64,000 nt of DNA from an uncultured Spirochaetales bacterium (lineage in GTDB: Bacteria; Myxococcota_A; UBA9160; SMWR01): positions 4,591 through 68,590 of the forward strand of contig CAZBSV010000181.1 of assembly GCA_964494795.1 (NCBI GenBank), given 5' to 3'. The notes beneath the pieces were generated by a model. The model worked only from the letters and a program-made list of their open reading frames with translations. It ran no database searches and had not been told where the DNA came from. The stretch's first letter is position 1. Every line of letters starts with the position of its first letter. The translations under genes were made by a program, and so were the position numbers. Positions 1-62,173 of the stretch are shown one piece after another.

Positions 1-432
1 ATCGCGGGAATCCGGAACCGGTTGCGGCCGGGGGCAGCGGTAGCCATCGCTCATCACCGCGACCACGCGCGCCTCGGTGCGAAACGAAGGCCACGCTGAA
101 ATACCCGGCTCGACCAGCGCGCCGATCGAAAAGCGCCCACGAGCGTCGGTTTTCGCCTCGCGGTGACCGAGCACTTCGCGGTCCGGCAGCACATCGTCGT
201 AGTGACCGTCGAAGCGCACCACCACCAGGGCACCCTCGATCGGTTGCCCGCTGGCCTGATCGACGACCGCGCCAGAAACGCCCGGTGCGACGCGCACCGG
301 TAGAATCACACAGGAAAGCTGCAATAGGGCGGCAACCGCCGCAGCGCCAAATGCGGCCACTCGACGCGACCGTTCGGCCAAGCCAGGGCTGCGCGCCCCA
401 CAATCGAATCGACCTCTTGCAGCCATGTGCAT
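1..432 (-). CDS. secreted protein with carboxypeptidase-regulatory-like (CarboxypepD_reg-type) domain; 3' end lies outside the window
   Basis: Absent from the ORF track because there is no stop in the window. My minus-strand translation from ATG 426 (or in-frame ATG 432) reads MAARGRFDCGARSPGLAERSRRVAAFGAAAVAALLQLSCVILPVRVAPGVSGAVVDQASGQPIEGALVVVRFDGHYDD...TDARGRFSIGALVEPG... and stays open to base 1. It has a signal-peptide-like hydrophobic N-terminus followed by the G.V.D...G.PI.GA.V.V / TD..G.F pattern. Confidence 0.5.
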   Translation of the reverse strand, partial: MHMAARGRFDCGARSPGLAERSRRVAAFGAAAVAALLQLSCVILPVRVAPGVSGAVVDQASGQPIEGALVVVRFDGHYDDVLPDREVLGHREAKTDARGRFSIGALVEPGISAWPSFRTEARVVAVMSDGYRCPRPQPVPDSRD

Positions 433-662
433 CTCTCCTCGTTCTTCGTCGCAATCCAAACCGGCTTCCGGTTTTCCACCGCTTCGACCGAAGAAGCGCG
501 GAACCTGAGTACCGACATCACGGTCTGGCCCTACCACCCGCGAAGTTCGCCGCCGAGTCGTTCGAGGGCGCTCAAGGCGGAGGCGCAACAGGTCGATTAG
601 ACGCGTGGAGTGGTCGCCGCTGCGGCCCGGAGTGGTCGCCGCTGCGGCCCTTGGAGGGGAGT

Positions 663-1856
663 GTGGGCGTAGAGCTCAACGACATCCTGAAGATCGCCCT
701 CAAGGGTGGAGCCTCGGATATCCATCTCAAACCCGGCCTACCGCCGATGTTTCGGGTGGACGGCGCGTTGGTTCCGCTGAAAAACGGCGAGCGAATTCCC
801 CCCGACGAACTCCAGAAAATGGCGTTCTCGATCATGAACGAGAACCAGAAGACTCGTTTCAACGAGACCCGGGAAACCGACCTCGCGTACGGGATCGCCG
901 GCCTCGGCCGGTTTCGCGTCAACGTATTCCAACAGCGCGGAACGGTCGGAATCGTCTTCCGTGTGATTCCATTCGGCGTCAAGTCGGTCGAGAGCCTGCA
1001 CCTGCCCAAGATCATCGAGTCCATCGCGATGGAACAGCGGGGATTGGTCCTCGTGACGGGTACCACGGGCTCGGGAAAATCGACGACGCTGGCCGGAATG
1101 ATCGACTACATCAATTCGAATCGGACCTGCCACATCATGACGATCGAGGACCCGATCGAGTTCCTGATTCGCGATCGGCGCTCCATCGTCAATCAGCGCG
1201 AAATCGGAGTGGACACCCAGAGCTTCGCCAACGCGCTGCGGGCTGCCCTGCGTCAGGACCCAGACGTGATCCTCGTCGGAGAGATGCGCGACTTCGAAAC
1301 CATCGAGACGGCCCTCACGGCTGCCGAAACAGGCCATCTCGTGATGAGCACCCTGCACACCCTCGATGCGACGGAAACCATCAACCGCATCATCTCGGTG
1401 TTCCCTCCCTACCAGCAGAAGCAGGTGCGTCTGCAACTCGCCGCAATCCTCAAGGCGGTGATTTCCCAGCGCCTCGTACCGCGCGCCGACGGAAAAGGGC
1501 GGGTGCCCGCGCTGGAGGTGCTGATCAGCACGGCGCGAGTCCGCGAATGCATCGGCGACAAGGATCGAACCAAGGAACTCCACGACGCAATCGCGAAGGG
1601 CTTCACCACCTACGGGATGCAGACCTTCGACCAGTCCTTGATGCACCTGGTGAAACAGGGACTGGTCACCTACGAAGAAGCCCTCAACCACGTCTCCAAT
1701 CCGGACGACTTCGCGCTGCGCTTCCGCGGAATTGCCTCGACGTCGGACGGCACCTGGGACGACTTCGAAAGCGGCGAAAACAAACCCGACGAAAGCGCGC
1801 CCGCGAAAGACGCTTCGACGAACGAAGTCGACGACGAATTCATTCAGCGCTTCTAG
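663..1856 (+). CDS. pilT: type IV pilus retraction ATPase PilT/PilU family
   Basis: ORF 285..1856 has Walker A GTTGSGKSTT, then MTIEDPIEF, ALRQDPDVILVGEMRD and AETGHLVMSTLHT boxes. I moved the start to GTG 663 (VGVELNDILKIALKGGASDIHL), where PilT N-termini normally begin. The upstream 126 codons are Arg/Pro-rich noise. The gene has a roughly 50-aa acidic C-terminal tail. Confidence 0.9.
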   Translation: MGVELNDILKIALKGGASDIHLKPGLPPMFRVDGALVPLKNGERIPPDELQKMAFSIMNENQKTRFNETRETDLAYGIAGLGRFRVNVFQQRGTVGIVFRVIPFGVKSVESLHLPKIIESIAMEQRGLVLVTGTTGSGKSTTLAGMIDYINSNRTCHIMTIEDPIEFLIRDRRSIVNQREIGVDTQSFANALRAALRQDPDVILVGEMRDFETIETALTAAETGHLVMSTLHTLDATETINRIISVFPPYQQKQVRLQLAAILKAVISQRLVPRADGKGRVPALEVLISTARVRECIGDKDRTKELHDAIAKGFTTYGMQTFDQSLMHLVKQGLVTYEEALNHVSNPDDFALRFRGIASTSDGTWDDFESGENKPDESAPAKDASTNEVDDEFIQRF

Positions 1857-1882
1857 CCCGCGCAGATCCTTTATCTATTGAG

Positions 1883-2190
1883 TGAGTCCGCTGCTGGCGG
1901 GGGCCCAGTTGGCCGGGCTGGTTGTGCGGACGGGCTTCTGATTTGAACTCGGTTGCAGGTACACGACGCGTGAGTCCACTGCTGGCGGGGGCCCAGTTGG
2001 CCGGGCTGGTTGTGCGGACGGGCTTCTGATTTGAACTCGGTTGGCAGGTACACGACGCGTGCGTCCGCTGCTGGCGGGGGCCCAGTTGGCCGGGCTGGTT
2101 GTGCGGACGGGCTTCTGATTTGAACTCGCTTGGCAGGTACACGACGCGTGAGCCCGCGGCTGGCGGGGGCCAGAGTTGGCCGGGTCGCTC
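1883..2190. repeat. tandem array of an 88-89 bp unit, about 3.5 copies, intergenic between pilT and alaS
   Basis: Direct reading gives units at 1883-1970, 1971-2059 and 2060-2148, plus a degenerate partial copy to about 2190. Copies are nearly identical. The core is GCTGGCGGGGGCCCAGTTGGCCGGG. Confidence 0.9.
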
Positions 2191-2360: not shown

Positions 2361-5003
2361 GTGATGTCGCCTAGTGCGAGCGAGATTCGAGAGGCGTTTC
2401 TGCGCTTTTTCGAGGGCAAGGGGCATCAGGTCGTCGCGAGTGCTTCGCTGGTTCCCGCAGGCGATCCGACCCTGCTGTTCACCAACGCGGGGATGGTTCC
2501 GTTCAAGAACACCTTCCTGGGGCTGGAAGCGCGCGACTACGTGCGGGCCGCGACTTCGCAGAAGTGCATGCGCGTATCGGGCAAGCACAACGATCTCGAA
2601 AACGTCGGGCGCACGCCCCGCCACAACACCTTTTTCGAAATGCTCGGCAATTTTTCGTTTGGCGATTATTTCAAACTCGAGGCCATCGAGTACAGCTGGG
2701 AGCTGCTCACCGAGCGCTTTGGGATCGACCCGGCGCGAATCGTCGCCACGGTCTTCCGCGAAGACGACGAGGCGCACGATCTCTGGCGCGAGAAGATCGG
2801 GCTTCCGGCCGAGAAGGTCTATCGCCTCGACGAAGCTGAGAACTTCTGGTCGATGGGCGACACCGGCCCCTGCGGGCCCTGTTCCGAGATCCACATCGAC
2901 TTCGGGGTCAACAGCGCCTGCAAGAGCAGCCGCTGCGATCCGTCGTGCGACTGCGGTCGCTGGCTCGAGATCTGGAATCTCGTCTTCATGCAATTCGACC
3001 GCGATGCCGCGGGAAAGCTGACTCCGCTACCCAAGCCGTCGATCGACACGGGCTCGAGCCTCGAGCGCCTCGCGTCCGTCCTGCAGGGCGTCGGATCGAA
3101 TTTCGACACCGATCTGTTTCGAGGGATCATGGCTCGGATTCAGGAGATTTCCAAGACCCAGCGGGGAGACGATTCCGAACGCGACGTCTCGATGAATGTC
3201 GTCGCCGATCACGCTCGCGCGCTGGTGTTCCTGATCGGCGATGGCGTGCTGCCGGGGAACGAGGGGCGGGGTTACGTGCTGCGTCGCCTGCTTCGTCGGG
3301 CCGCGCGCCACGGCGTGCTGCTCGGCGTCGAGCGGCCCTTCTTGTTCAACGTCGGGGACGCCGTGATCGACGAGATGGCACCCGTTTATCCCGAGCTGCG
3401 CGAGCGGCGCGCCTACATCACGGGTCGCATCCAACGAGAAGAAGAGCGCTTCCTCGAAACGCTCTCGAAGGGACTCGCACGGCTCGAAGAGGACATCTCA
3501 CAACTCGAAAGCAGCGGCTCGAAGGTCCTGCCCGGCGAAGCCGTCTTCAAGCTCTACGACACCTATGGCTTCCCGGTCGATCTGACCGCGGACATTCTGG
3601 CGGGCCGGAAGCTGCGGATCGACGAAGTCGGCTTCAACGCCGCGATGACCGCGCAGCGAGAGCGGGCGCGCGCAGCCTGGAAGGGGAGCGGCGACGAACG
3701 CGTGGCCGCAATCTACGGGCGACTCGCGGCCGATTTCAACACCCGCTTTTGCGGATATTCGGAGCTGGGGGGAAGGTCGGCAATCCGCGCGCTGTTGGTG
3801 GATGGAGAGAGCCGCGAAGTCGCAACCCGTGGCCAGTCGGTGGAAATCGTCGTCGACGAAACGCCCTTTTACGCCGAGAGCGGAGGACAAGTGGGCGATC
3901 GCGGTACGCTGCGCGTGCCCGCTGGGAGGGTCGAGATTTCGGACACCCAGCGCCCGGTTCTGGAGCTGGTGGTTCACCGCGGCGTCGTCACGCATGGCGA
4001 GCTGCGCGTCGACGCCGAAGCCGAACTGGCGGTGAACGCAGAGTCGCGCGCGGCAACCGTTCGCAACCACTCCGGGACTCACCTGTTGCACGCGGCACTG
4101 CGCTGCGTGCTCGGGAAACAGGCGATGCAGAAGGGATCGCTGGTCGCCCCCGATCGGCTGCGCTTCGACTTCACCCACGACGCTCCGCTCGACGACGCTC
4201 AGATCGAAGCCATCGAGGACCTCGTGAACGGCTGGATCGAGCAAAACGCGCGGGCCCATATTCGCGAGATGTCGTACCCCGAGGCGATCGAGTCGGGAGC
4301 CGTCGCGATCTTCGACGAGAAATACGGCGATGTCGTGCGTGTGATCCAGTTCGGAGACTTTTCGACGGAACTGTGCGGAGGCACCCATGCCGGCGCGACC
4401 GGCGAGATCGGCCTGCTCAAGATTCTCTCCGAATCGGGCATCGCAGCCGGCGTGCGGCGAATCGAGGCGCTCACGGGCCTCGCAGCGCTGAAGCACTTGC
4501 GCAGACAGGAACGCGCGCTGCGCGCCGCAGCGGAATTGCTTCGGGTTCCGATTGCAGACGTTCCCGGCCGGGTCGAGAAGCTGCTCGCCGATCGGCGCGC
4601 CGCAGAGCGCGAAATCGAGCGGCTCCGATCGGCCCAGCGCGGCGAAACCTCGAAGGGCTTGGGACGCGACTACCGGGAAATTTCCGGAGTGCGCGTGATC
4701 GCCACCCGGGTGGCGGCTGCGGGGGCCAAGGAATTGCGGGCCATGGTGGACGACTTGCGAAGTCAGCTCACAAGCGGGATCGTACTGCTCGCCGCCGAGG
4801 AGAATGGCCAGGTATCGCTCGCGCTCGGCGTCACCAAGGACCTCACCGACCGCTACCGAGCGGGCGACCTGATCCGCGAGATCGCGTTGGTCGTGGCTGG
4901 CAAGGGCGGTGGCAGAGCCGATTTCGCACAGGCAGGCGGCAGCGATCCGAGCAAGATCGACGACGCGTTCGCGCGGCTCGAAGCGTTGATCGCAGGGAGT
5001 TGA
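2361..5003 (+). CDS. alaS: alanine--tRNA ligase
   Basis: 880 aa. Class II AlaRS N-terminus (IREAFLRFFEGKGHQVVASASLVP, DPTLLFTNAGM, FEMLGNFSFGDYFK), editing-domain HSGTHLLH and CGGTH motifs, and a C-terminal DHHA1-like end (GKGGGRADFAQAGG). Confidence 0.97.
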   Translation: MMSPSASEIREAFLRFFEGKGHQVVASASLVPAGDPTLLFTNAGMVPFKNTFLGLEARDYVRAATSQKCMRVSGKHNDLENVGRTPRHNTFFEMLGNFSFGDYFKLEAIEYSWELLTERFGIDPARIVATVFREDDEAHDLWREKIGLPAEKVYRLDEAENFWSMGDTGPCGPCSEIHIDFGVNSACKSSRCDPSCDCGRWLEIWNLVFMQFDRDAAGKLTPLPKPSIDTGSSLERLASVLQGVGSNFDTDLFRGIMARIQEISKTQRGDDSERDVSMNVVADHARALVFLIGDGVLPGNEGRGYVLRRLLRRAARHGVLLGVERPFLFNVGDAVIDEMAPVYPELRERRAYITGRIQREEERFLETLSKGLARLEEDISQLESSGSKVLPGEAVFKLYDTYGFPVDLTADILAGRKLRIDEVGFNAAMTAQRERARAAWKGSGDERVAAIYGRLAADFNTRFCGYSELGGRSAIRALLVDGESREVATRGQSVEIVVDETPFYAESGGQVGDRGTLRVPAGRVEISDTQRPVLELVVHRGVVTHGELRVDAEAELAVNAESRAATVRNHSGTHLLHAALRCVLGKQAMQKGSLVAPDRLRFDFTHDAPLDDAQIEAIEDLVNGWIEQNARAHIREMSYPEAIESGAVAIFDEKYGDVVRVIQFGDFSTELCGGTHAGATGEIGLLKILSESGIAAGVRRIEALTGLAALKHLRRQERALRAAAELLRVPIADVPGRVEKLLADRRAAEREIERLRSAQRGETSKGLGRDYREISGVRVIATRVAAAGAKELRAMVDDLRSQLTSGIVLLAAEENGQVSLALGVTKDLTDRYRAGDLIREIALVVAGKGGGRADFAQAGGSDPSKIDDAFARLEALIAGS

Positions 5004-7672: not shown

Positions 7673-7835
7673 AACCCGGCCAACTGGGCCCCGGCTAGTG
7701 GAGCCCTCTCATTCAGAAGCGAACCTGTCCGGGCAAACTGGGCCCCGGCTAGTGGCGCCCACTCATTCCAACACGGAGCTGTCCGGGCAGGGCCCCCGCC
7801 AGCGGCGGATTCCCTCATTAGGCCCCGGAACTGCG
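7673..7835. repeat. tandem array of a 54 bp unit, 3 copies, related in inverted orientation to the 1883-2190 repeat
   Basis: Units at about 7673-7727, 7728-7781 and 7782-7835. The reverse complement of unit 1 contains GGGGCCCAGTTGGCCGGG, identical to the core of the 88-bp repeat. Unit 3 contains CCCCCGCCAGC. Confidence 0.85.
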
Positions 7836-33650: not shown

Positions 33651-34610
33651 TTGCCGCGGGGCGAACGCTGCTGGCCTGGAAGCTTCGGGGCGCGCGCATC
33701 GAGCAGCCGCGAAAGGATCTGTGTGTCGGACCAGACAGCGAATTCCCCCGACGCGCCGGGGTCAGAACGAGCGCTGATTTCCTCGGACCCGCCGGGGTCG
33801 AAAAAGGCGCCGATATCCCCGGGCCGGCCGGGGGGCGGCCGCCGTGCTTCGGGCAGGGCGGCGGCAGGGCTCTGGCCGGCTGGCCGGGCCCGCTGGTTGC
33901 CGCTCGCGTGTATCGGCCTCGCCGCGGCGCTCGCTAGCCTCACAGCGCTCTGGGTCTCGCGTTCGATGACCGGCGAGGCCCGCGACGGCCTCGAAATCAC
34001 CACAGCGGCAACGCGCGACGAGAAGCCCCCTCTCAGCGACGCGCAGCGCCGCGAAGCCGCGCAGAGGGCGCGATTCACAGCCGTGCGCGACGCGCTGCTT
34101 GCGCTCGATCCATCGCGTCTGCCGGGTCTTGCGTCCGAGAGGGACAGAGCTGGACTGAGTGCTCGCGTCTGGACGCTTCCCGACCCGGTCGAAAACGATG
34201 CGATTTACCGCGTGGGAATCGAGGCGGATTGCGCGTGCTCGGCGCTGTTGTTTTCCGTGAGCGCGACGAGCGACGAAATTGCGCTCCTCTACCCAAATTT
34301 GTTTCAGATCAATTCGCGGCTCGAGGCGGGCGCGCCGGTCGAGGTGCCGTCGACACCGGAGTGGACGCTGCGGGCGGTGGGTGGCGAAGGGGTGGATGTG
34401 CTCGAGCTGCTGATATTTTCGGAGCCGCCCGCATTTCCGAGTGATCGCAGCTCGAGCTGGCTCGCCGCGCCCGACCGGCCGGATCGAATCGCGGAACTCG
34501 AAGCGCTGCTCGAGGCGCTCCAAACCGGCGAGTGGGGTGTTGCGACGACGACGCTCCGGATCGTTTCGAGCGCGGTCGGGAATGCAGCGCCCCTGCGCGA
34601 ACCGCTTTGA
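33651..34610 (+). CDS. membrane-anchored DUF4384-like protein
   Basis: Low-complexity N-terminus, one TM helix (WLPLACIGLAAALASLTALWV), then IYRVGIEADCACSALLFSVSATSDEIALLYPNLFQINSRLEAGAPVEVP...GEGVDVLELLIFSEP, which fits the DUF4384 pattern (YRVGE..., LLFPN, AG..V.P). The start is uncertain: TTG 33651, or GTG 33723 after GAAAGGA. Confidence 0.6.
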   Translation: MPRGERCWPGSFGARASSSRERICVSDQTANSPDAPGSERALISSDPPGSKKAPISPGRPGGGRRASGRAAAGLWPAGRARWLPLACIGLAAALASLTALWVSRSMTGEARDGLEITTAATRDEKPPLSDAQRREAAQRARFTAVRDALLALDPSRLPGLASERDRAGLSARVWTLPDPVENDAIYRVGIEADCACSALLFSVSATSDEIALLYPNLFQINSRLEAGAPVEVPSTPEWTLRAVGGEGVDVLELLIFSEPPAFPSDRSSSWLAAPDRPDRIAELEALLEALQTGEWGVATTTLRIVSSAVGNAAPLREPL

Positions 34611-34783
34611 AACGCTTGAAAATGCGTGTTGACAGCGAGCCCGTGGGTTGGTCCAATGCTCCGGCGTCGCGCGCGGATCCGCGGCAGCGCAGGCTGCCTA
34701 GCCCGCCCGCGAGTGACGCTGCAGAGCATGCGCGGGCAGCCTGGAAGTGTTTCTCGCCAAGCAGCGCCCTTCGAAGCTGCTGG

Positions 34784-34898
34784 CGATTGATTGGACGATT
34801 GATTTGACGATTGACTGGGCGATTGATTTGACGATTGACTGGGCGATTGACTGGCCGATTGATTGGGCGATTGACTGGACGATTGACGATTGATTGGA
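34784..34898. repeat. 12-bp tandem repeat, about 9.6 copies (CGATTGAYTKGR), immediately upstream of the TPR/beta-barrel gene
   Basis: Direct reading gives units at 34784, 34796, 34808, ..., 34887. Each carries TTGAYT. The array ends 7 nt before ATG 34905. Confidence 0.95.
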
Positions 34899-34904
34899 GA
34901 GTGG

Positions 34905-36482
34905 ATGGAGGACGGGACCTTGCGATTGCAGTTGCACGCCGGCCAAGCCAAGCGGCCGCGCCGAGGCGGATGGCGCTACATCGCGCTCGCACTCGCGACC
35001 GCGGCGCTCGCGCAACCCGCCGCGGCGTCGGTGAAATCCGAGATTGCCTTTCACCAGGGCGTCGTCGCGTTTGGCAGCGGCGATCTGGCTGCCGCCCAGG
35101 CGGCCTTCGAAGCGGTGCTCGCCGAAGACAGCGACGACGCCGCGGCGATCCACTACCTCGGCCTGATCTCCGCGGAGCGCGGAGATTTCGAAGCGGCCGC
35201 CAGCCACTACCAGCGCGCGCTCGAACTCGATCCCGACGACGTCGACGTCCGCTTCGATCTCGGCTCCGCGCTGCTCGAATCCGGCAAGACCGCCGAAGCC
35301 AGGCGCGAATTCGACCAGGTGCTCGCCGCGGAGCCCGACCGGGCGCGCGCGCAGCTGTTTGCGGGCATCGCCGCCTACCGCGCGGGCGCCTACCGCGAGT
35401 CGCTTCCGTTTCTGGCTCGCAGCGTCGAGCTCGATGGCGAACTGCGCCCACAGGCCCTCTACTACACCGGCCTGTCGCAGGCGCACCTGCAGGATTTCCC
35501 GGCCGCCGCGGGCGCGTTCGCGCAAGTCGAGCAGTCACCGCTCTCGCCACTGTCGGACTCCGCGCGCAATCTCGCTCGCCAGGTCACGCCGAGCGCCGAG
35601 CCGGCGCGGCGCTGGACGCTCGGAGCTACCGCCGGACTGGAATACGACAGCAACCCGACGATCGCGGGAGAAACGCTCCCGCAACACCAAGACGGTCGCG
35701 GCGTCTTCCGGATCGAGGGCAGCTATCTGCTCTACGAAGACGAACGCTATTCGGCGACCGCGGGCTACGACGCCTATCTCAGCGCGCACTTCGACCAGAC
35801 CTTCGTCAACCTGATGACTCACTCGGGTTATCTCGCGACGGCCGCGGATTTCGATCCCGTCACCTTCAACCTGCGCTACGACTACGCGTACACCTGGATC
35901 GACGCGTTTGACACGAAAAAGTTTCGTGAGCTCCAGCGCGTCACGCCGTCGGTATCTTATCGCGAAGGCGACTGGGGGTTCAGCCAGGCCTACTACCAGT
36001 TCCACCACGAGGACTTCAAACGCCCGCTGCTGACGGATGCGCTGAACCGCGACGGATATCGAAACGTCGTGGGATTCAATCAATTCTTCTTTCCGGGTTC
36101 CTATCTCCCGGAATCTGTGCCAATTACCTACTTCCGGCTGGGTGCGCTCGGGGATTTCCAACGCACCGACGGCAGCGAGTTCGACTACGATTCCTGGGAG
36201 TTCTCGTTCGGCTTTGGCGCGGAACTCCCGTGGGAGATCGATCTCTCGATCCTGTATCGCTTGACGGAGCGCGACTATCGGAACCAGAGCGTGTTTTCGA
36301 CTCCGCCGAACAGCGAGATACGCGATGATCTGCAGAACCGCCTGACTCTCGAACTCAACAAGGCGATCGGCGATCACTGGCAGGTCGCGGTGGCGGGTTC
36401 GTTCACCTTTGACGACTCGAATGTCGCCCTCTATGACTACAATCGCGAGATCGTGGGTGGCTATCTGACGTATCGTTTCTAG
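34905..36482 (+). CDS. outer-membrane protein: N-terminal TPR domain plus C-terminal beta-barrel (Slam/DUF560-like architecture)
   Basis: ATG 34905 follows GGAGAG. Signal peptide WRYIALALATAALAQPAAAS. About 4-5 TPRs (AAAIHYLGLISAERGDFEAAASHYQRALELDP...). The roughly 290-aa C-terminal part has alternating amphipathic strands (WTLGATAGLEYDSNPT, FRIEGSYLLY, ATAGYDAYLSAHF, ...VAVAGSFTFDDSN) and ends with the OMP-type terminus GGYLTYRF. Confidence 0.7.
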   Translation: MEDGTLRLQLHAGQAKRPRRGGWRYIALALATAALAQPAAASVKSEIAFHQGVVAFGSGDLAAAQAAFEAVLAEDSDDAAAIHYLGLISAERGDFEAAASHYQRALELDPDDVDVRFDLGSALLESGKTAEARREFDQVLAAEPDRARAQLFAGIAAYRAGAYRESLPFLARSVELDGELRPQALYYTGLSQAHLQDFPAAAGAFAQVEQSPLSPLSDSARNLARQVTPSAEPARRWTLGATAGLEYDSNPTIAGETLPQHQDGRGVFRIEGSYLLYEDERYSATAGYDAYLSAHFDQTFVNLMTHSGYLATAADFDPVTFNLRYDYAYTWIDAFDTKKFRELQRVTPSVSYREGDWGFSQAYYQFHHEDFKRPLLTDALNRDGYRNVVGFNQFFFPGSYLPESVPITYFRLGALGDFQRTDGSEFDYDSWEFSFGFGAELPWEIDLSILYRLTERDYRNQSVFSTPPNSEIRDDLQNRLTLELNKAIGDHWQVAVAGSFTFDDSNVALYDYNREIVGGYLTYRF

Positions 36483-36519
36483 CAATCGACGCGCAAACAA
36501 CAGCGAGAGGAGAGAGAAA

Positions 36520-37464
36520 ATGCGGAATATGCGGACTGGAACTTCTGAGCTGAGACGGATCTTTCTCTGCACGGCCAGCTTCGGCGCGTTCGCCTGCCTT
36601 GCGGGAAGTGCATGGGCGGCGAACGACGCGCGGCTGACAGCCGTGAAAGGGGATGCGTCGATCTCGGCTGGCGCACTCGACAGCCACAGCGAACTCGCCG
36701 ATGGCGACGATCTCGAGACCGGAGACGAGAGCGGTTGCTCGATCCTGTTGGATCAGAACGCCGTGGTGGAACTCTGCGGTCAGACCCGGATCTCGTTCGC
36801 GACCGACGAGAAGCGCGGCAACCGGATCGTGAACGTCGAATCCGGCAAGTTGCGCATGGTCGTCGAGCCGCGCTCGCCCGGCGAGCGGATCGAAATCCAC
36901 ACCCCGGCGGCAATCGCGACGATCCTCGGGACGATCATCTACATATCGGTCGACCCGATTACCGGCGAAGAGACCTTCACCTCGTCGGACAGCCGGGTCA
37001 ACATTCGCGACCGCGACGAGGTGGACTGCACGCCGATCGGGCTTCCCGCAGAAGCGGGAATACCGCGATGCGCCGAGGGCACCACGATCGGTGGCCTCGA
37101 ACAGCTCACCGTGGTGCCGGGCGAGAAGCAGCGCGACAAGAAGAGTGTCGACGAACAGGAACTCGCGCAGCTCGGCGGCTGCCTGTTCGACTTTCACGAA
37201 CTCGCGGCGCGCATCGATCGAGCGGCCCAGGAGAGCAAGTCGACCGACCGCATCGTCGCGATCGACGTTGCTGTCGCGGACCTGCCGCCGGTTTCCCTCG
37301 AAGAAGGACCGTCGATCGAAACGGAGAGCGGCGACGACCTCGACGCGGAAATCAATCCGTTCGACGACTCCAGCCAGGAAGAGCTGATCCGGGAATCGCT
37401 CGCGCCGGATACGGATATTCCCGACTGCGGCGGCGGCATTCCGGGCGAGCACTGCGACTTCTGA
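36520..37464 (+). CDS. secreted FecR-domain protein
   Basis: 314 aa. RBS GAGGAGAGAGAAA. Signal peptide FLCTASFGAFACLAGSAWA. FecR-like beta region LTAVKGDASISAGA...LADGDDLETGDESGCSILLDQNAVVELCGQTRISF...VESGKLRMVV...IHTPAAIATILGTIIYISV. Acidic C-terminal half ending CGGGIPGEHCDF. Confidence 0.7.
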   Translation: MRNMRTGTSELRRIFLCTASFGAFACLAGSAWAANDARLTAVKGDASISAGALDSHSELADGDDLETGDESGCSILLDQNAVVELCGQTRISFATDEKRGNRIVNVESGKLRMVVEPRSPGERIEIHTPAAIATILGTIIYISVDPITGEETFTSSDSRVNIRDRDEVDCTPIGLPAEAGIPRCAEGTTIGGLEQLTVVPGEKQRDKKSVDEQELAQLGGCLFDFHELAARIDRAAQESKSTDRIVAIDVAVADLPPVSLEEGPSIETESGDDLDAEINPFDDSSQEELIRESLAPDTDIPDCGGGIPGEHCDF

Positions 37465-37630
37465 CGAGCGACCACCGCGACTTCTGACGATCGACCACCG
37501 CGATTTCTGACGCGCAAACACCGCGATTTCTGACGCGCAAACACCGCGATTTCTGACGCGCAAACACCGCGACTACTGATGCGCAAACACCGCGACTACT
37601 GATGCGCAAACACCGCGACTACTGATGCGC
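37450..37630. repeat. 23-bp tandem repeat, about 7.9 copies, starting inside the last codons and stop of the FecR gene
   Basis: Units start at 37450, 37473, 37496, 37519, 37542, 37565, 37588 and 37611. There are three sub-variants in blocks of 2+3+3 (..GACTTCTGACGAKCGAC / ..GATTTCTGACGCGCAAA / ..GACTACTGATGCGCAAA). The first unit contains CAC TGC GAC TTC TGA, the gene end. Confidence 0.95.
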
Positions 37631-37682
37631 GTCCGTTCGGCGGCGGGGAGGCGAGCGGCTCGAGCCGAGGCGCGTCGCGCCG

Positions 37683-40600
37683 CTACAGCACGCCCGAGAA
37701 GATGAAGTTCGCCCAGATCAGCGGTCGATGGATCCCGAGTCGCGTCTCGCTCTCGAGTTGGGCGAGCTGCGCCGCTCGCAACGCCTCTGCGCCGCGAAGT
37801 GCGTCCGGCTTCGAGTCTTCGGAGACCAGCGCCGCGTAGAAGCTCCGCATCATCCGGCTCGTCGCAGCGTCGTTGCTGCGCCACAGACTCGTGACGAGCG
37901 CCTGGGCGCCCGCGGCGCGGAACCCCCAGCGAAGCCCGAGAATCTCCTGACCCCGGAGCGCCAATCCCGTCCCGGTGTCGCAGGCCGAGAGCACGACGAG
38001 GTCGGCGGCTTCGAGGTCGAGGCCCGCGACCTCGTAGGCGGTCAAGATCCCGCTCTCCGCTTCGGACTCGACCCGTGTCGGCCGATTCGCGCCCGCGAGC
38101 ACGATCCCGGACATGAGCAGCGGATTGGGTGCGATCGGCCGCTCGCGCAGGTTTTCGCCATCAGCGGCCTGCGCGCAACCCGCGTTGCCCGCAAAATAGG
38201 CGTGCGTCGCAAAGTGGAGCAGGCGGGGCCGTGACGCGAGTTCGGCCGCGAGTCGCGGCTTGGTGACCTCGGCGCCGAGCAGCCGGCGCGGCTCCACGAG
38301 CAGCTCCGCGATGTCGTCGAGTTCGCGGCGCGTGGCCGGGAGTTCCTCGAATGCCGAAAGCTGACACGGTCCCGTGTCAGTCAGAATCACGGGGCCGCCG
38401 TTTCCTGCGCCGCCGAAGTCCGGCGCGCCCACGAGCAGCGATCGTTCGAGCGCGCTTGCACGACCCTTCTCGACCGATGCCTCTGCGAGTTCGTAGGCCG
38501 AGGTGAGATACCCGACGGTCACGCGTTCCAACAAATAGCGATTCGGGTCCGCGGGGTCGGGCAACACGCCGATCGGAATGCCCCAGAGCGAACCGTCCGG
38601 AATCACGAGCCAACGCTCGACTCCGGCGAGCGAGGCCATCAGCGGCTCGAGCACGATGCGACTGAGTTCGACTCTCGCGATCGGCTCATCCATCCGCTGG
38701 TCGCGCATCGCGGTCGCGAACTGCTCGGCGAATTGCTGCAGCTCTGCGCCGTTGCCGAGGTCGACCCGGCTCACCCGACATCCGTCAGCCCGAACGATCA
38801 GGGCCGCGTACGCGGGGGCGGTCTCGAAGGCACTGCCGCTGGAAGTCCGGTCATAGGCGATGAAATTGATCAGAGCCGCATCGGCGGGAAGGTTGCGGCA
38901 GGCGTTTTTCAAAACACTCGACGGGTCGTCGGCCGGACGCACGGCGCCTTGGGTGCCCTGCAACACCTCGAGATTCTCGATCGACGCCGCGAGCGATTTC
39001 ACGCGCTCTGCGGTGTCGGGTCCGCGACCGAGCACCGCCGCCACGTAGCGGCGCCGCAACTCGTCGAGTTCCGGCGCAAACTGGGCGTCGCTGCGCGCGA
39101 CGGCCCTTCGCGCGGCGATGCTGCGCAACACGGAATCGCGGTGCGGGAGCAGATCCAGGAACAAGATCTTCGGATCGCTGTCGCGAACGGACAACAGCGC
39201 GCCGATCACCTCGTGACTGTCCTGGGACAAGAGCGCCCGCTGGCGATCCGAAATCGCGCCGAAGGTCCGCTGGGAAAATACCAGGATCGAGCGCGAAGCC
39301 TGGGTCGATTGTTCACTCGCGACGGCGTCGTCCCCCTGCGCGAGCGCGATCTTCGCCCGGGTCGTGCGCGCGCGTGCAACCAGCGGATGCTCCGGGCCGA
39401 GGGATGCCGACAGGACTTCGATCGCGCGATCGATTTCCGACGCGGCCTGGTCGAGTTTTCCGCGTTGGGCGAGCAACTGGGCGATCGCGAGACGCGTCGG
39501 CGCGAGATCGGGATGATTGGATCCGAGCGCGCGTTGCTGCGCGGCGAGCGCCTGCTCGAGCAGCTGCTGCGCGCGATCGCCCTCGCCGAGCTCGAATTCC
39601 ATTCGCGCCTGATTGCGCACCGCCGACGCGACACCCGGGTGATCGTCTCCCAATGCCGCGCGAAGACCCGCAACCGCGGTGGCGTACTGATCGGCCGCAG
39701 CACGATCCTTCGCCGACCCCCAACGAGCGAGTGCGCGATTGGTCTGAACCGTGATGGTGTCGACGCGCTCATCTCCTCCTGGTGTATCTCGCAAGATCTC
39801 GAGCGCCGACGCGAAAGAGCGATCGGCGCTCTCCCAGTCCCCGATATCTGCCTGCAGCACGCCGATCGCGTTCTCGGTTCGCGCGGTCTCGGCGTGCTTG
39901 GGCCCGAGAACCGCACGCCGCAGCCGCAGGGTCTCGCGATACGCGGCGATCGCCGCCGGAAAGTCGCCCGCCAGCCGGTAGGCGTCGCCCTGGAGCTGCA
40001 AGACCGCCGCCGTCGAGGGGTGATCGCCGCCGTAGCTCGCGCGATGACCATCGAGTGCGTTTTCGAGATGGATCAGTGCGTCTCTAGGCGATCCCAACAG
40101 CAAATTGGTGTAGCCCAGAGTCTCCTCGTACTCGGCGCGGTCCGCAGGTCGGCTCACCGCGGACTCGAGGCGATCGAGCTGCACGGCGGCCTTTTCGAGA
40201 TCGCCAGCGTCTGCGTAGAGGCGCGCGTAGTCGATCCGATTCGCGGTGGCGCCGACCTCGGCGGCGAGCTGTTCCGCGATCGCTGCCTCCCGGATCGCCT
40301 CGTCTCGCTTGCCGAGTTGGAGCTGGATCTTCGCGAGCAGGTCGTGAAGCTTCATCCGCTCGGCGGCGCTCTCGGGCGCATCCGCGTGTTCGCTCGCGAG
40401 TAGCGCCGCTTCGAGCGCCTGGCGGTAGAGGGCGCGCTCGTAGAGTTGCAGCCCGACCGAGAGATGTTGCTCGTAGCTGATCTCGGGAAGCCGGTCGCGA
40501 TCGGCTGCAGGTGCGGGCGTGCACGCGCGCAGCGCTTTGAGCGCCCGACCGACCGCGGGATCGGTCGCGCGCTCCGACCCGCCAGCCGACTCGGGCGCCC

Positions 40601-40790
40601 GGGTCGAGCTGCCCACGTACAAGCGCACGAGTTCCGCGGTCTCGTGGTCCGCGCCGTACTCGGATTCCACGGCGGCGAGGAGTTCTCCGAGAACGGCGTT
40701 CGCGTCACCACCCGACGTGCAAAGCTCCGCGGCCCGACGCGTCAGCTCGACCAGATCCGCGGATTCCGCGTCGACGCGGAGCGGGACCAA
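37683..40790 (-). CDS. TPR-repeat CHAT-domain protein (caspase-fold peptidase family)
   Basis: 1035 aa. The N-terminal 650 aa or so are KLC-type TPRs (LGDDHPGVASAVRNQARMEFELGEGDRAQQLLEQAL, LGSNHPDLAPTRLAIAQLL, LGPEHPLVARARTT...). The C-terminal CHAT domain has a His/Cys dyad context LLHFATHAYF ... DLVVLSACDTGTG ... GAQALVTSLW. The start is uncertain (TTG 40790). Confidence 0.85.
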   Translation of the reverse strand: MVPLRVDAESADLVELTRRAAELCTSGGDANAVLGELLAAVESEYGADHETAELVRLYVGSSTRAPESAGGSERATDPAVGRALKALRACTPAPAADRDRLPEISYEQHLSVGLQLYERALYRQALEAALLASEHADAPESAAERMKLHDLLAKIQLQLGKRDEAIREAAIAEQLAAEVGATANRIDYARLYADAGDLEKAAVQLDRLESAVSRPADRAEYEETLGYTNLLLGSPRDALIHLENALDGHRASYGGDHPSTAAVLQLQGDAYRLAGDFPAAIAAYRETLRLRRAVLGPKHAETARTENAIGVLQADIGDWESADRSFASALEILRDTPGGDERVDTITVQTNRALARWGSAKDRAAADQYATAVAGLRAALGDDHPGVASAVRNQARMEFELGEGDRAQQLLEQALAAQQRALGSNHPDLAPTRLAIAQLLAQRGKLDQAASEIDRAIEVLSASLGPEHPLVARARTTRAKIALAQGDDAVASEQSTQASRSILVFSQRTFGAISDRQRALLSQDSHEVIGALLSVRDSDPKILFLDLLPHRDSVLRSIAARRAVARSDAQFAPELDELRRRYVAAVLGRGPDTAERVKSLAASIENLEVLQGTQGAVRPADDPSSVLKNACRNLPADAALINFIAYDRTSSGSAFETAPAYAALIVRADGCRVSRVDLGNGAELQQFAEQFATAMRDQRMDEPIARVELSRIVLEPLMASLAGVERWLVIPDGSLWGIPIGVLPDPADPNRYLLERVTVGYLTSAYELAEASVEKGRASALERSLLVGAPDFGGAGNGGPVILTDTGPCQLSAFEELPATRRELDDIAELLVEPRRLLGAEVTKPRLAAELASRPRLLHFATHAYFAGNAGCAQAADGENLRERPIAPNPLLMSGIVLAGANRPTRVESEAESGILTAYEVAGLDLEAADLVVLSACDTGTGLALRGQEILGLRWGFRAAGAQALVTSLWRSNDAATSRMMRSFYAALVSEDSKPDALRGAEALRAAQLAQLESETRLGIHRPLIWANFIFSGVL

Positions 40791-40834
40791 ACAGAGCGCG
40801 AGGACGATCGGCGCGAGTCGCGGCAGGGACGGGA

Positions 40835-41374
40835 TTACGGCTGCGCTCCCAGGTTGATCAGTTCGACGCGTCGGTTTCGCTGCCGACCCGTCGGGTCGAC
40901 GTTGGTCGCAACCGGAGCCGACTCGCCGCGCCCGACGGTTTCCAGCCGCGCGGAGGGAACACCCGCGCCCACGAGGAAGCGCTCGACCGCTGCGGCCCGT
41001 CGCTGCGACAGCGCGTCGTTGTACTCGGCCGCGCCCGCGCTGTCCGTGTGTCCTTCGACGGAAAACCGGAAGGCGGCGAGCTCCTGCGCGGAAAGCGCGA
41101 CGCCGACGCGTTCGAGCAGCACGACGGAGTCGGACTGGAGCCGATCCGAATCGAATTCGAAGTAGACGGGAAGCCGCAACGTCGGCGGTGCACCGGGCTC
41201 GATTCTCGTGCCGCGCGCCGGAGCCAGCGCCTCGATGATGTCTTCGGTCTGGATCGACAAGGCGTCGGCCGTCGTGAGGTCGGTCACGGCCGGGGCATTT
41301 TCCTGCGAGCGTGCAAGCGTCGAAGAACCAGACAGCGCGATTGCGACCACGAGCCAGACGAAATCGAAGCGCAT
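40835..41374 (-). CDS. small OmpA-C-like (peptidoglycan-binding) periplasmic protein
   Basis: 179 aa. Signal peptide FVWLVVAIALSGSSTLARS, then an OmpA_C core: VYFEFDSDRLQSDS...FSVEGHTDSAGAAEYNDALSQRRAAAVERFLV...GRGESAPV...GRQRNRRVEL. Confidence 0.88.
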   Translation of the reverse strand: MRFDFVWLVVAIALSGSSTLARSQENAPAVTDLTTADALSIQTEDIIEALAPARGTRIEPGAPPTLRLPVYFEFDSDRLQSDSVVLLERVGVALSAQELAAFRFSVEGHTDSAGAAEYNDALSQRRAAAVERFLVGAGVPSARLETVGRGESAPVATNVDPTGRQRNRRVELINLGAQP

Positions 41375-41435
41375 CGGACCTCCTCGCGTCTGCGGCCGAT
41401 CCGATCCCCCCTCGCGGCCGCGCGCGCAGCGTATG

Positions 41436-43460
<2,025 letters not shown>

Positions 43461-46115: not shown

Positions 46116-46157
46116 TCCGGGGTCGCAAAGGGGCAGGGCACGCGCTGCGGAGCCATG

Positions 46158-46344
46158 CCTGATCTGCCGTGCCTAAAAACTGGCCGTGCCTAAAAACTGG
46201 CCGTGCCTGAAAACTGGCCGTGCCTGAAAACTGGCCGTGCCTAAAAACTGGCCGTGCCTAAAAACTGGCCGTGCCTAAAAACTGGCCGTGCCTAAAAACT
46301 GGCCGTGCCTGGAAACTGGCCGTAGCTAAAAACTGGCCGTGCCT
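46158..46344. repeat. 17-bp tandem repeat, about 11 copies (AAAAACTGGCCGTGCCT), in the divergent dus / moeA intergenic region
   Basis: Direct reading gives near-perfect copies with occasional G substitutions in the A-tract and one GTAGCT variant. The array is bracketed by TGCCTGAT on both sides. Confidence 0.95.
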
Positions 46345-59776: not shown

Positions 59777-60120
59777 TCGGTCACCTCGGGCACCTTCCGG
59801 TCCTGTCAACGGCCGGTTCGTCGCCTATCAACGACCGGTTCGTCGCACGAGACGCAGCTGAGCGCGACGAAGTCGGTCGCTCGATCCAGCGGCATCTCGA
59901 AGACGCTGTGGTGCAATTCCCTCATCGGATTTCTCGGCCAGCCACTTGAGTGAAAAACGGGCGAAGTTGATCGTGCGTAAGCGAGTCGCGCTTGAGTTGC
60001 GCGTTGCCGGTTCGGCTTCGCCGTTGCCGGTTCGGGTTCGCGATCGGGCCGCTGCGCGCGATGCTTCGCGCGGCCTGCCGCCCGCGCGCGCAAGCGTCAA
60101 CTTGCGGGTCCCGCGGGCCG

Positions 60121-62100
60121 ATGACGGAAGTGCCCGAGGAGACTCTCGATCTTCCCTCTGCGGGCGGTGGAGCGATGGAGCGAAGAGAAGGCCGGCGAAT
60201 CAAGCGCAGGCTCACCTGCGAATTCTTCCACGGGGCGAGCGTCCACCGCGGAATCATCCTCGATCTCTCTGCCGCGGGAATCTTCATCCGGACCAACGCG
60301 GTGCTTGCACCCGGAACGGAGATCGACATCTACCTGGCCGTCTCGGTGGCGGCGCCAGCCATGACACTGCGGGGAAGCGTGGTGCGCCGCCGTTCGGTTC
60401 CGGCCACGCTCACCACGTTGATCCAGCCCGGGATCGGGGTGAAGATCACCGAAGCGCCGCGCGAATACGGTCTGCTCACGCAAGACTGCGAACTCGATGA
60501 CGCAATCCAGATCGATTACGACGCTACGGCGCAGGATGCCGACCAACACGCGAAACAGAATCCGCCAGCGACCGCCGCGAATGCGAGCACTGGCAAGAGC
60601 GAACGGCCCTCTCAGCCGCCAGCAAGCGCGAAGGCTGCGGAGAAGTCGGATGTTCTCGAAAAGTCGGATGCTTCAGCAGACACGAGAAAGGGACACTCCG
60701 AATCGACCCGCGCGCCGCTGAAGCGCAAGCCGAAGCAAGAAGCCGCTCGGAGCACGCACAGCGAGAAACCCAAGGCGCCGCGCGAGTTCATCGCTGTGCT
60801 CGTCGGGGGTTCTGCGCTCGACGAGATCGCCGAGGTCTTGACAGGGATGGGAGTCAAGGTCGTTCGCTGCGGCCCCTACGACCCCCAGCTCGCCGCGCTC
60901 GACGACGCCCAACTCCTCGTGGTCAGCGCGGAGATCGCGATGTCGGACCCGCTCCCCGTCGATACCGACATGCTCGTCGGAATCGCGGTGTGTGGAGAGA
61001 TCTCGGAAACCATGCGCTCGCAGATCCGCCAGCAGGGTTTTCGCTACCTGCTGCGCCCGCACCTGCACCCCGAAGCGCTGCGACTCCTGCTGCGCTACGC
61101 GGTCTACGCGGAGCGCGACCGGCGTGGACGGGTGCGCCACCCGGTGGGATGCGAGGTGAGCTGGCGCGTCGGCTGGAAGCGAAGTCGCGGTCGTCTGCTC
61201 GATATCTCCCGGGGCGGCTGCTGCCTGCTGGTGGAGAACAGCCCGGACGTCGACGCGCGCATTTCGATCAAGATCCCGCCTGAAACCGTTGGCGGCCCTG
61301 CGCTCAAGCTTCGCGGCAGAGTGCTTCGCCGCACCGCCAACGCGGCGCACAGCGGCAGGCAGCGGACTGCGCTCGGGATCGTCCTCGACGACCTGACGGC
61401 CCCGGCCCGCAAGCTTCTGGCCGAGCTCTGCGAGAGATGGAGCGAGAGTCCGCCCATGCTGCCGCGCGACGACTGGGCGGAAGTTCGCGATTCCTACACC
61501 GAGCCTTCCGACTCACACATCGATGATCGGAACGCTGCGGCTCCCAGATCAGAAGGGAAACCGGAAGCCGCTGCAGAAGCGAAACCGGAAGCCGCCGCAA
61601 GCCAACCGGAAACCCCCGCAAGCCGACCGGAAGCCGCCGCAAGCCGCCGACCGGAGACTTCGACCGAAGACCGCGTCGATGCGCGCATCGACGGTCCTTC
61701 AGCGCGATCCACTTCACGCGAAGCCGGGCGAGCGGCGCGCCGCGCCGTGTTCGAGAGAGAAGTCGTCGAAGTCGACGAGCAGGCGCGCGTCGTCCAGGCG
61801 TTGCTGGGTCGCGATCTTTCGGTCGAGGGGATCCGCGTGGTGCGCCAGCTCGGACTCAATCCCGGCAACAAACTCCGACTCGCGCTGTTCGACACCTCGC
61901 AGCGAGAACCGCTGATGCTGAACGCGGAGGTCTCCAGAGACGACGGCGGCAGCGGACTCTTCCTGCGCTTCGTCGATCTGTCCGCGGGAGCGATCGCGCG
62001 CATCGAAGCGATCGTCGCACTGCTGCCTGCGGTCGAGTCAATCGATCCACACGGCGATGCGGGAGTGATACCGGCGGGCGTCGTCTCCAACCACGCCTGA
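60121..62100 (+). CDS. multi-PilZ-domain protein (three PilZ-like modules)
   Basis: Read in the frame of track ORF 59992..62100, with ATG 60121 preferred. Module 1 is RRIKRR...GIILDLSAAGIFIRT. Module 2 is RGRVRHPV...GRLLDISRGGCCLLV. Module 3 is degenerate: RRAVFERE...GRDLSVEGIRVV. The linkers are low-complexity Ala/Pro/Glu/Lys repeats. Confidence 0.7.
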   Translation: MTEVPEETLDLPSAGGGAMERREGRRIKRRLTCEFFHGASVHRGIILDLSAAGIFIRTNAVLAPGTEIDIYLAVSVAAPAMTLRGSVVRRRSVPATLTTLIQPGIGVKITEAPREYGLLTQDCELDDAIQIDYDATAQDADQHAKQNPPATAANASTGKSERPSQPPASAKAAEKSDVLEKSDASADTRKGHSESTRAPLKRKPKQEAARSTHSEKPKAPREFIAVLVGGSALDEIAEVLTGMGVKVVRCGPYDPQLAALDDAQLLVVSAEIAMSDPLPVDTDMLVGIAVCGEISETMRSQIRQQGFRYLLRPHLHPEALRLLLRYAVYAERDRRGRVRHPVGCEVSWRVGWKRSRGRLLDISRGGCCLLVENSPDVDARISIKIPPETVGGPALKLRGRVLRRTANAAHSGRQRTALGIVLDDLTAPARKLLAELCERWSESPPMLPRDDWAEVRDSYTEPSDSHIDDRNAAAPRSEGKPEAAAEAKPEAAASQPETPASRPEAAASRRPETSTEDRVDARIDGPSARSTSREAGRAARRAVFEREVVEVDEQARVVQALLGRDLSVEGIRVVRQLGLNPGNKLRLALFDTSQREPLMLNAEVSRDDGGSGLFLRFVDLSAGAIARIEAIVALLPAVESIDPHGDAGVIPAGVVSNHA

Positions 62101-62173
62101 ACGTGCCCGGCCTGCGCGCCTGAACGTGCCCGGCCTGCACGCCTGAGCGTGCCCGGCCTGCACGCTTGAGCGG
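62095..62173. repeat. 23-bp tandem repeat, about 3.4 copies, starting at the last codon and stop of the PilZ gene
   Basis: GCCTGAACGTGCCCGGCCTGCGC (62095-62117, containing the TGA stop at 62098-62100), then copies at 62118-62140 and 62141-62163, and a partial copy to 62173. Confidence 0.9.

Follow-up and report, generated by a model that had tools for sequence, protein, structure and literature searches.

How does a run of eight 23-nt repeats come to begin inside the last codons of a gene, and does it do anything there? The locus that raises this question lies in a 64-kb stretch of DNA (the whole of which is called the window below), in which a gene for a FecR-domain protein ends within a tandem array that extends toward a convergently oriented neighbor gene. 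We conclude that the array is very probably a young, lineage-specific and apparently neutral minisatellite (VNTR-type), which would have arisen by duplication of the gene end and at least two further bursts of amplification in a genome that is prone to forming such arrays.

Layout of the array and of the convergent gap

The FecR-domain gene (36520..37464, + strand; 314 aa; Pfam PF04773, E=1.6e-8) ends with CAC TGC GAC TTC TGA, and the last residues of its product are ...CGGGIPGEHCDF. These codons lie within the first unit of an array that TRF places at 37450..37630 with a period of 23, 7.9 copies, 93% matches, 0% indels and a score of 243; when it is laid out in register and read to 37633, it consists of eight full 23-nt units that lie head-to-tail and abut one another directly without spacers. 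An initial annotation of this DNA had described a 23-bp array that starts in the FecR stop region, and this description is confirmed (TRF, layout in register, 0/100 shuffles).

Unit 1 (U1; 37450..37472, + strand; CACTGCGACTTCTGACGAGCGAC), which we regard as the seed, contains the last four FecR codons (CAC TGC GAC TTC), the stop codon TGA at 37462..37464 and 8 nt of 3' flank, CGAGCGAC. Unit 2 (U2; 37473..37495, + strand; CACCGCGACTTCTGACGATCGAC) is the oldest-looking copy and differs from U1 at two positions, T4C, which turns the Cys codon TGC into CGC, and G19T. Units 3-5 (37496..37564, + strand) are three identical copies of CACCGCGATTTCTGACGCGCAAA, and the perfect period-23 run that they form reaches 37572, while units 6-8 (37565..37633, + strand) are CACCGCGACTACTGATGCGCAAA twice and then a last unit with a GTC end in place of AAA. 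The blocks of 2+3+3 units that had been reported are thus real, except that U1 and U2 are not an identical pair, and the gene end is present once and copied seven times, not copied eight times as had been stated. Similarity among the units is 87-100% and is perfect only inside the sub-blocks; the consensus unit is ~61% GC and has 6 A in its 23 nt. U1 and U2 have GAC tails and U8 a similar GTC tail, and the interior units all have AAA, which is the usual picture of an array whose edges are probably older and whose interior is probably younger and homogenized. Every unit contains an intact TGA that, recurring each 23 nt, rotates through the three frames, as had been pointed out. Its intactness in each copy, together with the 87-100% similarity, could reflect youth or constraint, and either fits.

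The neighboring gene, convergent to the FecR gene, encodes a 1035 aa TPR + CHAT-domain protein (37683..40790, - strand; Pfam PF12770, E=2e-58, plus TPR families), and its stop codon (37683..37685) reads CTA on the + strand. The initial annotation had named both flanking genes in this way. Between the two stops lie 218 nt, of which the portion of the array that follows the FecR stop occupies 166-169 nt (~76%), in agreement with the earlier statement that the array fills most of the gap. The residual non-repeated part of the gap, 37634..37682, lies before the CHAT stop codon.

The gap carries no recognizable signals. Terminator-like sites are absent from both strands of 37465..37682, promoter-like sites from the FecR/CHAT gap and inverted repeats from the array; the single inverted repeat of the gap is a 10-nt pair (37654-37663 and 37675-37684) by the CHAT stop, and no T-run follows it. 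The array folds more weakly than its dinucleotide shuffles (z = +2.33 for the + strand and +1.53 for the - strand). Rfam gave no match at gathering thresholds over the whole window, and at E <= 1 over 37300..37800 it gave one match only, a meaningless one in a coding region. A structured RNA or terminator was rejected on the combined grounds that the array folds worse than shuffles, matches nothing in Rfam, shows no terminator or promoter pattern and contains no inverted repeat; an intrinsic terminator in particular would be a G+C-rich hairpin with a T-run, and there is none downstream of the FecR gene. A CRISPR array was rejected as well, the units abutting directly with no unique spacers between them, so the earlier reading of the array as neither CRISPR nor terminator stands. 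From this absence of recognizable signals we judge the array to be probably neutral.

The gene end and its copies

Was the array derived from the gene end, or the gene end from the array? A protein search gave 89 homologues of the FecR-like protein, one of which (P0001) is identical to it, and those relatives that carry a name are listed as MAGs of Myxococcota, Myxococcales or Deltaproteobacteria. An alignment of 31 sequences shows that the C-terminus (...PDCGGGIPGEHC, then D or N, then F) and the position of the stop codon are conserved in 30 homologues. At the orthologous loci the gene ends are CACTGCAAC/TTTC plus the stop, with orthologous DNA ending in ...CACTGCAACTTC or ...CACTGCAATTTC followed by a TGA or TAG stop and no array after it. 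Since the C-terminus and the stop position are ancestral in the homologues, it is the gene end that gave rise to the array; the first 15 nt of U1 are ancestral coding sequence, and U2-U8 are its copies. The homologues and the orthologous DNA both uphold the suggestion of an array seeded from the gene terminus. CGC stands in place of TGC in all seven copies (U2-U8), and so these descend in common from one early copy; U1, which has TGC for the conserved Cys, is held by selection.

Comparison with orthologous loci had been recommended in the initial annotation. We retrieved 55 related loci from metagenomes, and 14 of these with complete gene ends were examined for the gap. The convergent FecR/CHAT arrangement and the CHAT gene end are conserved at the orthologous loci, the array was found in none of the 14, and the unit core was found in none of the 55. 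The gap is hypervariable among the 14 loci, its extremes being an overlap of 4 nt and a length above 250 nt: at L017 the two stops overlap inside CTAG, the gap is 1 nt at L016 and 18-42 nt at L018, L027, L034 and L035, an unrelated array (17-nt x 9.2) occupies it at L021, and at L019, L023, L024 and L025 it holds a 68-nt hairpin-bearing element in 1-2 tandem copies, each with a CTCCTAG end, which re-copies the CHAT stop region. Since the array is missing from the relatives' loci, it is younger than the split from relatives at ~75% amino-acid identity; our searches found no relatives closer than that.

The unit itself is unique to this locus in the DNA that was searched. With up to 3 mismatches allowed, the consensus unit has no other occurrence in the 64-kb window (0/100 shuffles), and it has no matches in viral contigs. 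The array was not recovered among species-representative genomes (596 Gb), where the 20-nt unit core has 15 single scattered matches in unrelated phyla, none of them an array, and where 2-24 such matches are expected by chance, depending on G+C content. Occurrence of the 23-mer at many unrelated loci, which the initial annotation had named as the observation that would speak against its reading, was thus not seen in the window, the 55 loci, the viral contigs or the 596 Gb of genomes.

The history of the array may be reconstructed as follows. A 23-nt segment that runs from the fourth-last FecR codon through the stop and 8 nt into the 3' flank would have been duplicated in tandem, and, as the gene end with its stop stayed complete in the first copy, the protein would have been unchanged and the duplication tolerated by selection. 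TGC would then have become CGC in one early copy, of which every later copy would be a descendant, and at least two more bursts (3+3 identical units) would have followed by slipped-strand mispairing or unequal recombination between units, stretching the convergent gap from ~57 nt to 218 nt. We infer both the mechanism (slippage or recombination) and the sequence in which the amplification steps occurred; the runs in which units are identical are compatible with recent successive events, as had been proposed. The only likely effect of these events would be to add unstructured 3' sequence between the convergent pair of genes, and a function would not be needed. The sequence GCGA occurs twice at the seed, 23 nt apart (37445 and 37468), and this microhomology was set aside, four bases being too short as evidence.

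It had been supposed that gain or loss of units would change the C-terminal peptide of the FecR-like protein, and this is not the case. U1 carries the complete gene end and its stop codon, so that no change among U2-U8, their number included, reaches the protein. The exception would be a conversion of U1 itself by one of the units downstream, which would replace the conserved Cys by Arg.

Is the position of the array at a gene end in need of a special explanation? The pre-array locus was rebuilt by deleting U2-U8, which gives a 57-nt gap, and all 23-nt tandem duplications around it were enumerated. When a duplication takes in the stop codon, the first copy still supplies an intact gene end and the protein is not affected. 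Of the enumerated duplications, 81 preserve both proteins; 20 of these 81 (25%) extend into the FecR coding end and another 20 into the CHAT end, so that 49% reach into either gene. The window also contains a second gene-end array (62092..62169; 23 nt x 3.4), which re-copies CAC GCC TGA, the last two codons and the stop of a PilZ-domain gene whose C-terminus, ...PAGVVSNHA followed by the stop, is ancestral in homologues. Given the 25% neutral expectation and this second array at the PilZ gene, an array that begins within the stop region is to be expected, and neither a special mechanism nor a function is necessary to account for it.

Other tandem arrays in the window and competing explanations

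In the 64-kb window TRF (score ≥80, period ≥10) finds 18 arrays, which amount to 0.28/kb and 3.3% of bases. By the same TRF criterion there are 0.018 arrays/kb in 109 kb of unrelated genomes (L001-L015) and ~0.08 arrays/kb at the relatives' loci, and tandem arrays are ~15 times denser in the window than in control DNA. The periods of the arrays inside ORFs are 24, 60, 30, 36, 18 and 21, all multiples of three, with one exception, a 22-nt x 2 duplication inside an ORF at 607..650, whereas those of the intergenic arrays are 89, 54, 15, 18, 36, 12, 23, 22, 17, 41 and 23. This difference suggests a mutational process that is blind to position and is filtered by selection, and the array at the FecR gene would be one product of a genome-wide tendency of this Myxococcota-like organism to form arrays of any period between genes and of multiples of three within them. 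The window's arrays are mostly imperfect (74-100% matches by TRF). When the strict criterion that has been used for Borg elements is applied (a minimum of three perfect units and of 50 nt), perfect repeats make up 0.25% of the window and 0% of ~300 kb of controls (unrelated genomes and relatives' loci). One further array, at 46166..46344 (17 nt x 10.5), lies directly next to the dus start codon, and the gene-proximal flank of dus, TCAGGCATGGC, is mirrored in the unit of this array as TCAGGCACGGC.

Two side observations concern the sequences of these arrays. A YTGA motif was considered as a feature common to the window's array units (6 of 11, ~3.2 expected, P≈0.06) and was dropped as post hoc. 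The truly dispersed motif of the window is CCGCTGCTGGCGGGGGCCC, which lies within the array at 1882 and, inverted, at 7790..7808, and which illustrates what a dispersed element would look like in this window.

Among published accounts, the one that comes nearest to the whole syndrome is that of the pervasive tandem repeats of Borgs (Schoelmerich et al. 2023, PLoS Biol 21:e3001980; PMC9879509). The window resembles Borgs in having many independent recent arrays, each with its own unit, in having ORF units that are divisible by three, in having partial flanking repeats that are interpreted as seeds, and in its perfect-repeat load, 0.25% measured over 64 kb only, which is of the same order as the 0.62% of Borgs (their hosts have ≤0.01%; PMC9879509). 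Borgs, however, are AT-rich, A-biased linear elements of archaea with perfect units, whereas the window is a bacterial chromosomal segment with 65% G+C, chromosomal housekeeping genes (alaS, the L25 ribosomal protein gene, dus and nhaA) and mostly imperfect arrays with no apparent A bias. Could a Borg-like repeat-forming activity nonetheless be at work on a bacterial chromosome, with arrays that nucleate at gene boundaries (the stops at 37450 and 62092 and the start at 46166) and serve as fast-evolving 5' or 3' untranslated spacers that tune the adjacent genes, and so are not neutral debris of slippage? We think this unlikely.

Could the array instead be a functional cis-element, either a set of phased sites for a DNA- or RNA-binding protein or an unstructured 3' UTR spacer that insulates the convergent genes or soaks up a regulator? 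Its eight direct repeats have a fixed 23-bp spacing, which corresponds to roughly two turns of the helix and recalls iteron-like or operator arrays, it is less structured than shuffles on both strands, as an accessible single-stranded platform would be, there is no room between the convergent stops in L016 and L017, so that extra spacing could matter, and regulatory-RNA roles for intergenic arrays have been raised in the Borg paper (PMC9879509). On the other hand, the source of the unit is coding sequence with no recognizable operator, the array is missing from every orthologous locus in spite of conserved genes and arrangement, the gap has no promoter, terminator or Rfam signal, and the neighboring arrays of the window have unrelated units with periods of 12 to 89 nt, which points to a process and not to a specific site. 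The iterons of the R6K gamma origin are seven 22-bp repeats, and the likeness of the array to iterons is one of geometry only (about eight direct repeats of ~22 bp, the range of the class being ~17-23 bp, in helix phase). Unlike iterons, the array has a coding-derived unit and is absent from relatives, no initiator, partition or plasmid genes were seen near it (its flanks are the FecR and CHAT genes), and it lies in no plasmid or phage replicon context and has no AT-rich unwinding region, the window being 65% GC with housekeeping genes. A cis-acting function is accordingly quite improbable in our estimation.

Short-read metagenome assembly might also have created the array, or at least its copy number and 2+3+3 blocks. 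The contig of origin was probably assembled from a metagenome: only one NCBI contig (82 kb) is known to encode the protein, as is typical of a MAG. Neither the FecR-like protein (as the window translation or as P0001) nor the CHAT protein gave any record in exact look-ups. At 181 nt the array is longer than typical short reads, and by our own reasoning the three-unit identical runs (69-77 nt) would be near the resolution limit of common k-mer sizes. Two independent Logan contigs from SRR9952630 (L071 and L072), which were reached through OmpA-family and TPR proteins, are identical to the window and end before spanning the array, at 37979 and ~36789. The units, however, carry ordered substitutions (among units 1, 2, 3-5 and 6-8) of a kind that assemblers do not invent, the array has clean junctions to unique sequence at both ends, at least 10 other arrays in the window have imperfect, individually distinct units, and comparable arrays are present in the independently assembled relatives L021, L023 and L024. 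The exact number of identical units may be mis-assembled, but an artefact that changed this number would touch neither the presence of the array nor its origin in the gene end, and we give an assembly origin very little chance.

A cluster of dispersed repetitive elements (REP/BIME- or MITE-like) inserted by the gene end is essentially refuted: the window does have its one dispersed motif, CCGCTGCTGGCGGGGGCCC, and the relatives' FecR/CHAT gap its 68-nt hairpin element, but the 23-mer occurs nowhere else in the 64-kb window at 3 mismatches, in 0/55 related loci and in no viral contigs, its matches in 596 Gb of genomes are at chance level, and the unit has no palindrome or hairpin and has the conserved gene end as its first 15 nt.

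Relation to known repeat systems and significance

The young minisatellite that we favor is of the same general kind as the VNTR arrays that are used for MLVA typing (Zhou, Aertsen and Michiels 2014, FEMS Microbiol Rev 38:119, as cited in PMC9879509). Like those, it has a spacerless head-to-tail unit in the range of 10-100 nt, is locus-specific and intergenic, is missing or altered in relatives, and contains runs of identical units that would represent recent expansion by slippage or unequal recombination. VNTRs are defined by between-strain variation in copy number, whereas the array described here is known from one assembly of an uncultured Myxococcota-like organism and not from a typed pathogen.

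The likeness to other systems is more partial. Simple-sequence contingency loci have repeats of mostly 1-7 nt within a reading frame or promoter, and the number of units switches expression. The array would share with them a change of repeat number through slippage beside a gene, but the stop codon in U1 leaves its protein unaffected and there is no promoter between the convergent genes. The mycobacterial interspersed repetitive units (MIRUs) are a dispersed family of 40-100 nt present at dozens of loci, typically between co-directional operon genes, and their short ORFs are thought to allow translational coupling. Their sole likeness to the array is that they are intergenic tandem units that overlap the stop or start codons of flanking genes; the unit here is 23 nt long and is found at a single locus between convergent genes. 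MIRUs were reportedly described by Supply et al. in Mol Microbiol in 1997. Our literature search on tandem arrays in Myxococcota gave nothing specific.

What, then, does the array mean for the organism that carries it? Taken alone it is of little consequence, as the protein is unchanged and there is no regulatory signal. It is, however, a clean and datable case of the birth of a minisatellite, in which the seed can be recognized as a conserved gene end and the amplification steps can be read, and in practical terms assemblies are likely to break at it, and it is a candidate marker for typing strains of an uncultured lineage. The genome in which it lies has an unusual load of independent arrays that is of the same order as that of Borg elements, and, if this load holds genome-wide, it would provide a bacterial system for asking why some genomes form tandem repeats readily.

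Tandem array load and a dispersed motif

The window carries 18 tandem arrays when TRF hits with a score of at least 80 and a period of at least 10 are counted (0.28 per kb, 3.3% of bases from 1 to 64000), an array density about 15 times that of unrelated genomes (109 kb). Under the stricter criterion of the Borg paper (PMC9879509; perfect units, at least 3 of them, at least 50 nt), perfect repeats make up 0.25% of the window versus 0% of controls. Array periods are mixed in intergenic DNA and are multiples of 3 inside open reading frames, the sole exception being a perfect duplication of 22 nt (two copies of GGAGTGGTCGCCGCTGCGGCCC) at 607..650. It precedes the Pfam domain in open frame 3..1856, which encodes a T2SSE-type ATPase. 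It may be a recent N-terminal frameshift; alternatively, the real start codon of the frame may be further downstream.

Two of the arrays are associated with a G-rich dispersed motif, CCGCTGCTGGCGGGGGCCC, which matches the window 5 times where 0.12 matches are expected. Four copies lie in the 89-nt × 3.4 array upstream of alaS (1882..2184), and one inverted copy at 7790..7808 is adjoined by a 54-nt × 2.1 array (7678..7789). The motif may represent a REP-like family.

Arrays at other gene boundaries

A second array with a 23-nt period, present in 3.4 copies of CACGCCTGAACGTGCCCGGCCTG at 62092..62169, has a unit unrelated to that of the 37450 array at the end of the FecR-domain gene. It copies CAC GCC TGA, the final two codons plus stop codon of the PilZ-domain gene at 59992..62100, whose C-terminus (...PAGVVSNHA*) is ancestral, as its homologues show. 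At the opposite kind of boundary, a 17-nt × 10.5 array (46166..46344) sits directly upstream of dus, which is on the minus strand with its ATG at 46155..46157. This array seems to have been seeded at the start codon and to carry it in copies where ATG has become ACG, because the dus-proximal flank TCAGGCATGGC, start codon included, is mirrored as TCAGGCACGGC in every unit.

The FecR/CHAT cluster and its source population

Gene order across 33651..41374 is DUF4384-like, TPR/SlipAM-like and FecR-domain, followed by the convergent TPR-CHAT and OmpA-family genes. This cluster also holds nine copies of a 12-nt unit (TGGACGATTGAC) at 34780..34887, in the space separating the DUF4384-like ORF from the TPR/SlipAM-like gene. 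Only about 17 nt lie between the end of this array and the ATG (34905) of the TPR/SlipAM-like gene. Two Logan contigs of public run SRR9952630 are identical to the window: L071 is 100% identical to window positions 37979..42089 over 4111 nt, and L072, whose start falls within the 12-nt array, is identical to the window from about 34821 to 36789. This run therefore contains the source population.

Repeats at related loci

The FecR/CHAT pairing is kept throughout the loci of relatives. Tandem duplications alter protein ends in relatives too: a 21-nt × 2 repeat at the 5' end (L016, 956..998) means that the N-terminus of protein P0003 has LWNLR repeated, and protein P0018 has QGDDIID twice close to its C-terminus.

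The FecR/CHAT gap of four relatives (L019, 2639..; L023, 980..1112; L024, 1830..1973; L025, 923..) contains one or two tandem copies of an element of about 68 nt, which is not present in the window. It includes two small hairpins (…GCGCGTTGGCCTTCGGCCAAAGCTT…), and each copy terminates in CTCCTAG, so that the CHAT stop-codon region is re-copied. In L021, a relative with 70% protein identity, the convergent gap holds 9.2 copies of a 17-nt unit (GATTCGACGCCCGGTGT; 4017..4173) unrelated to the window's 23-nt unit, beginning about 80 nt past the FecR stop. This array formed independently at the site orthologous to that of the window's 37450 array.
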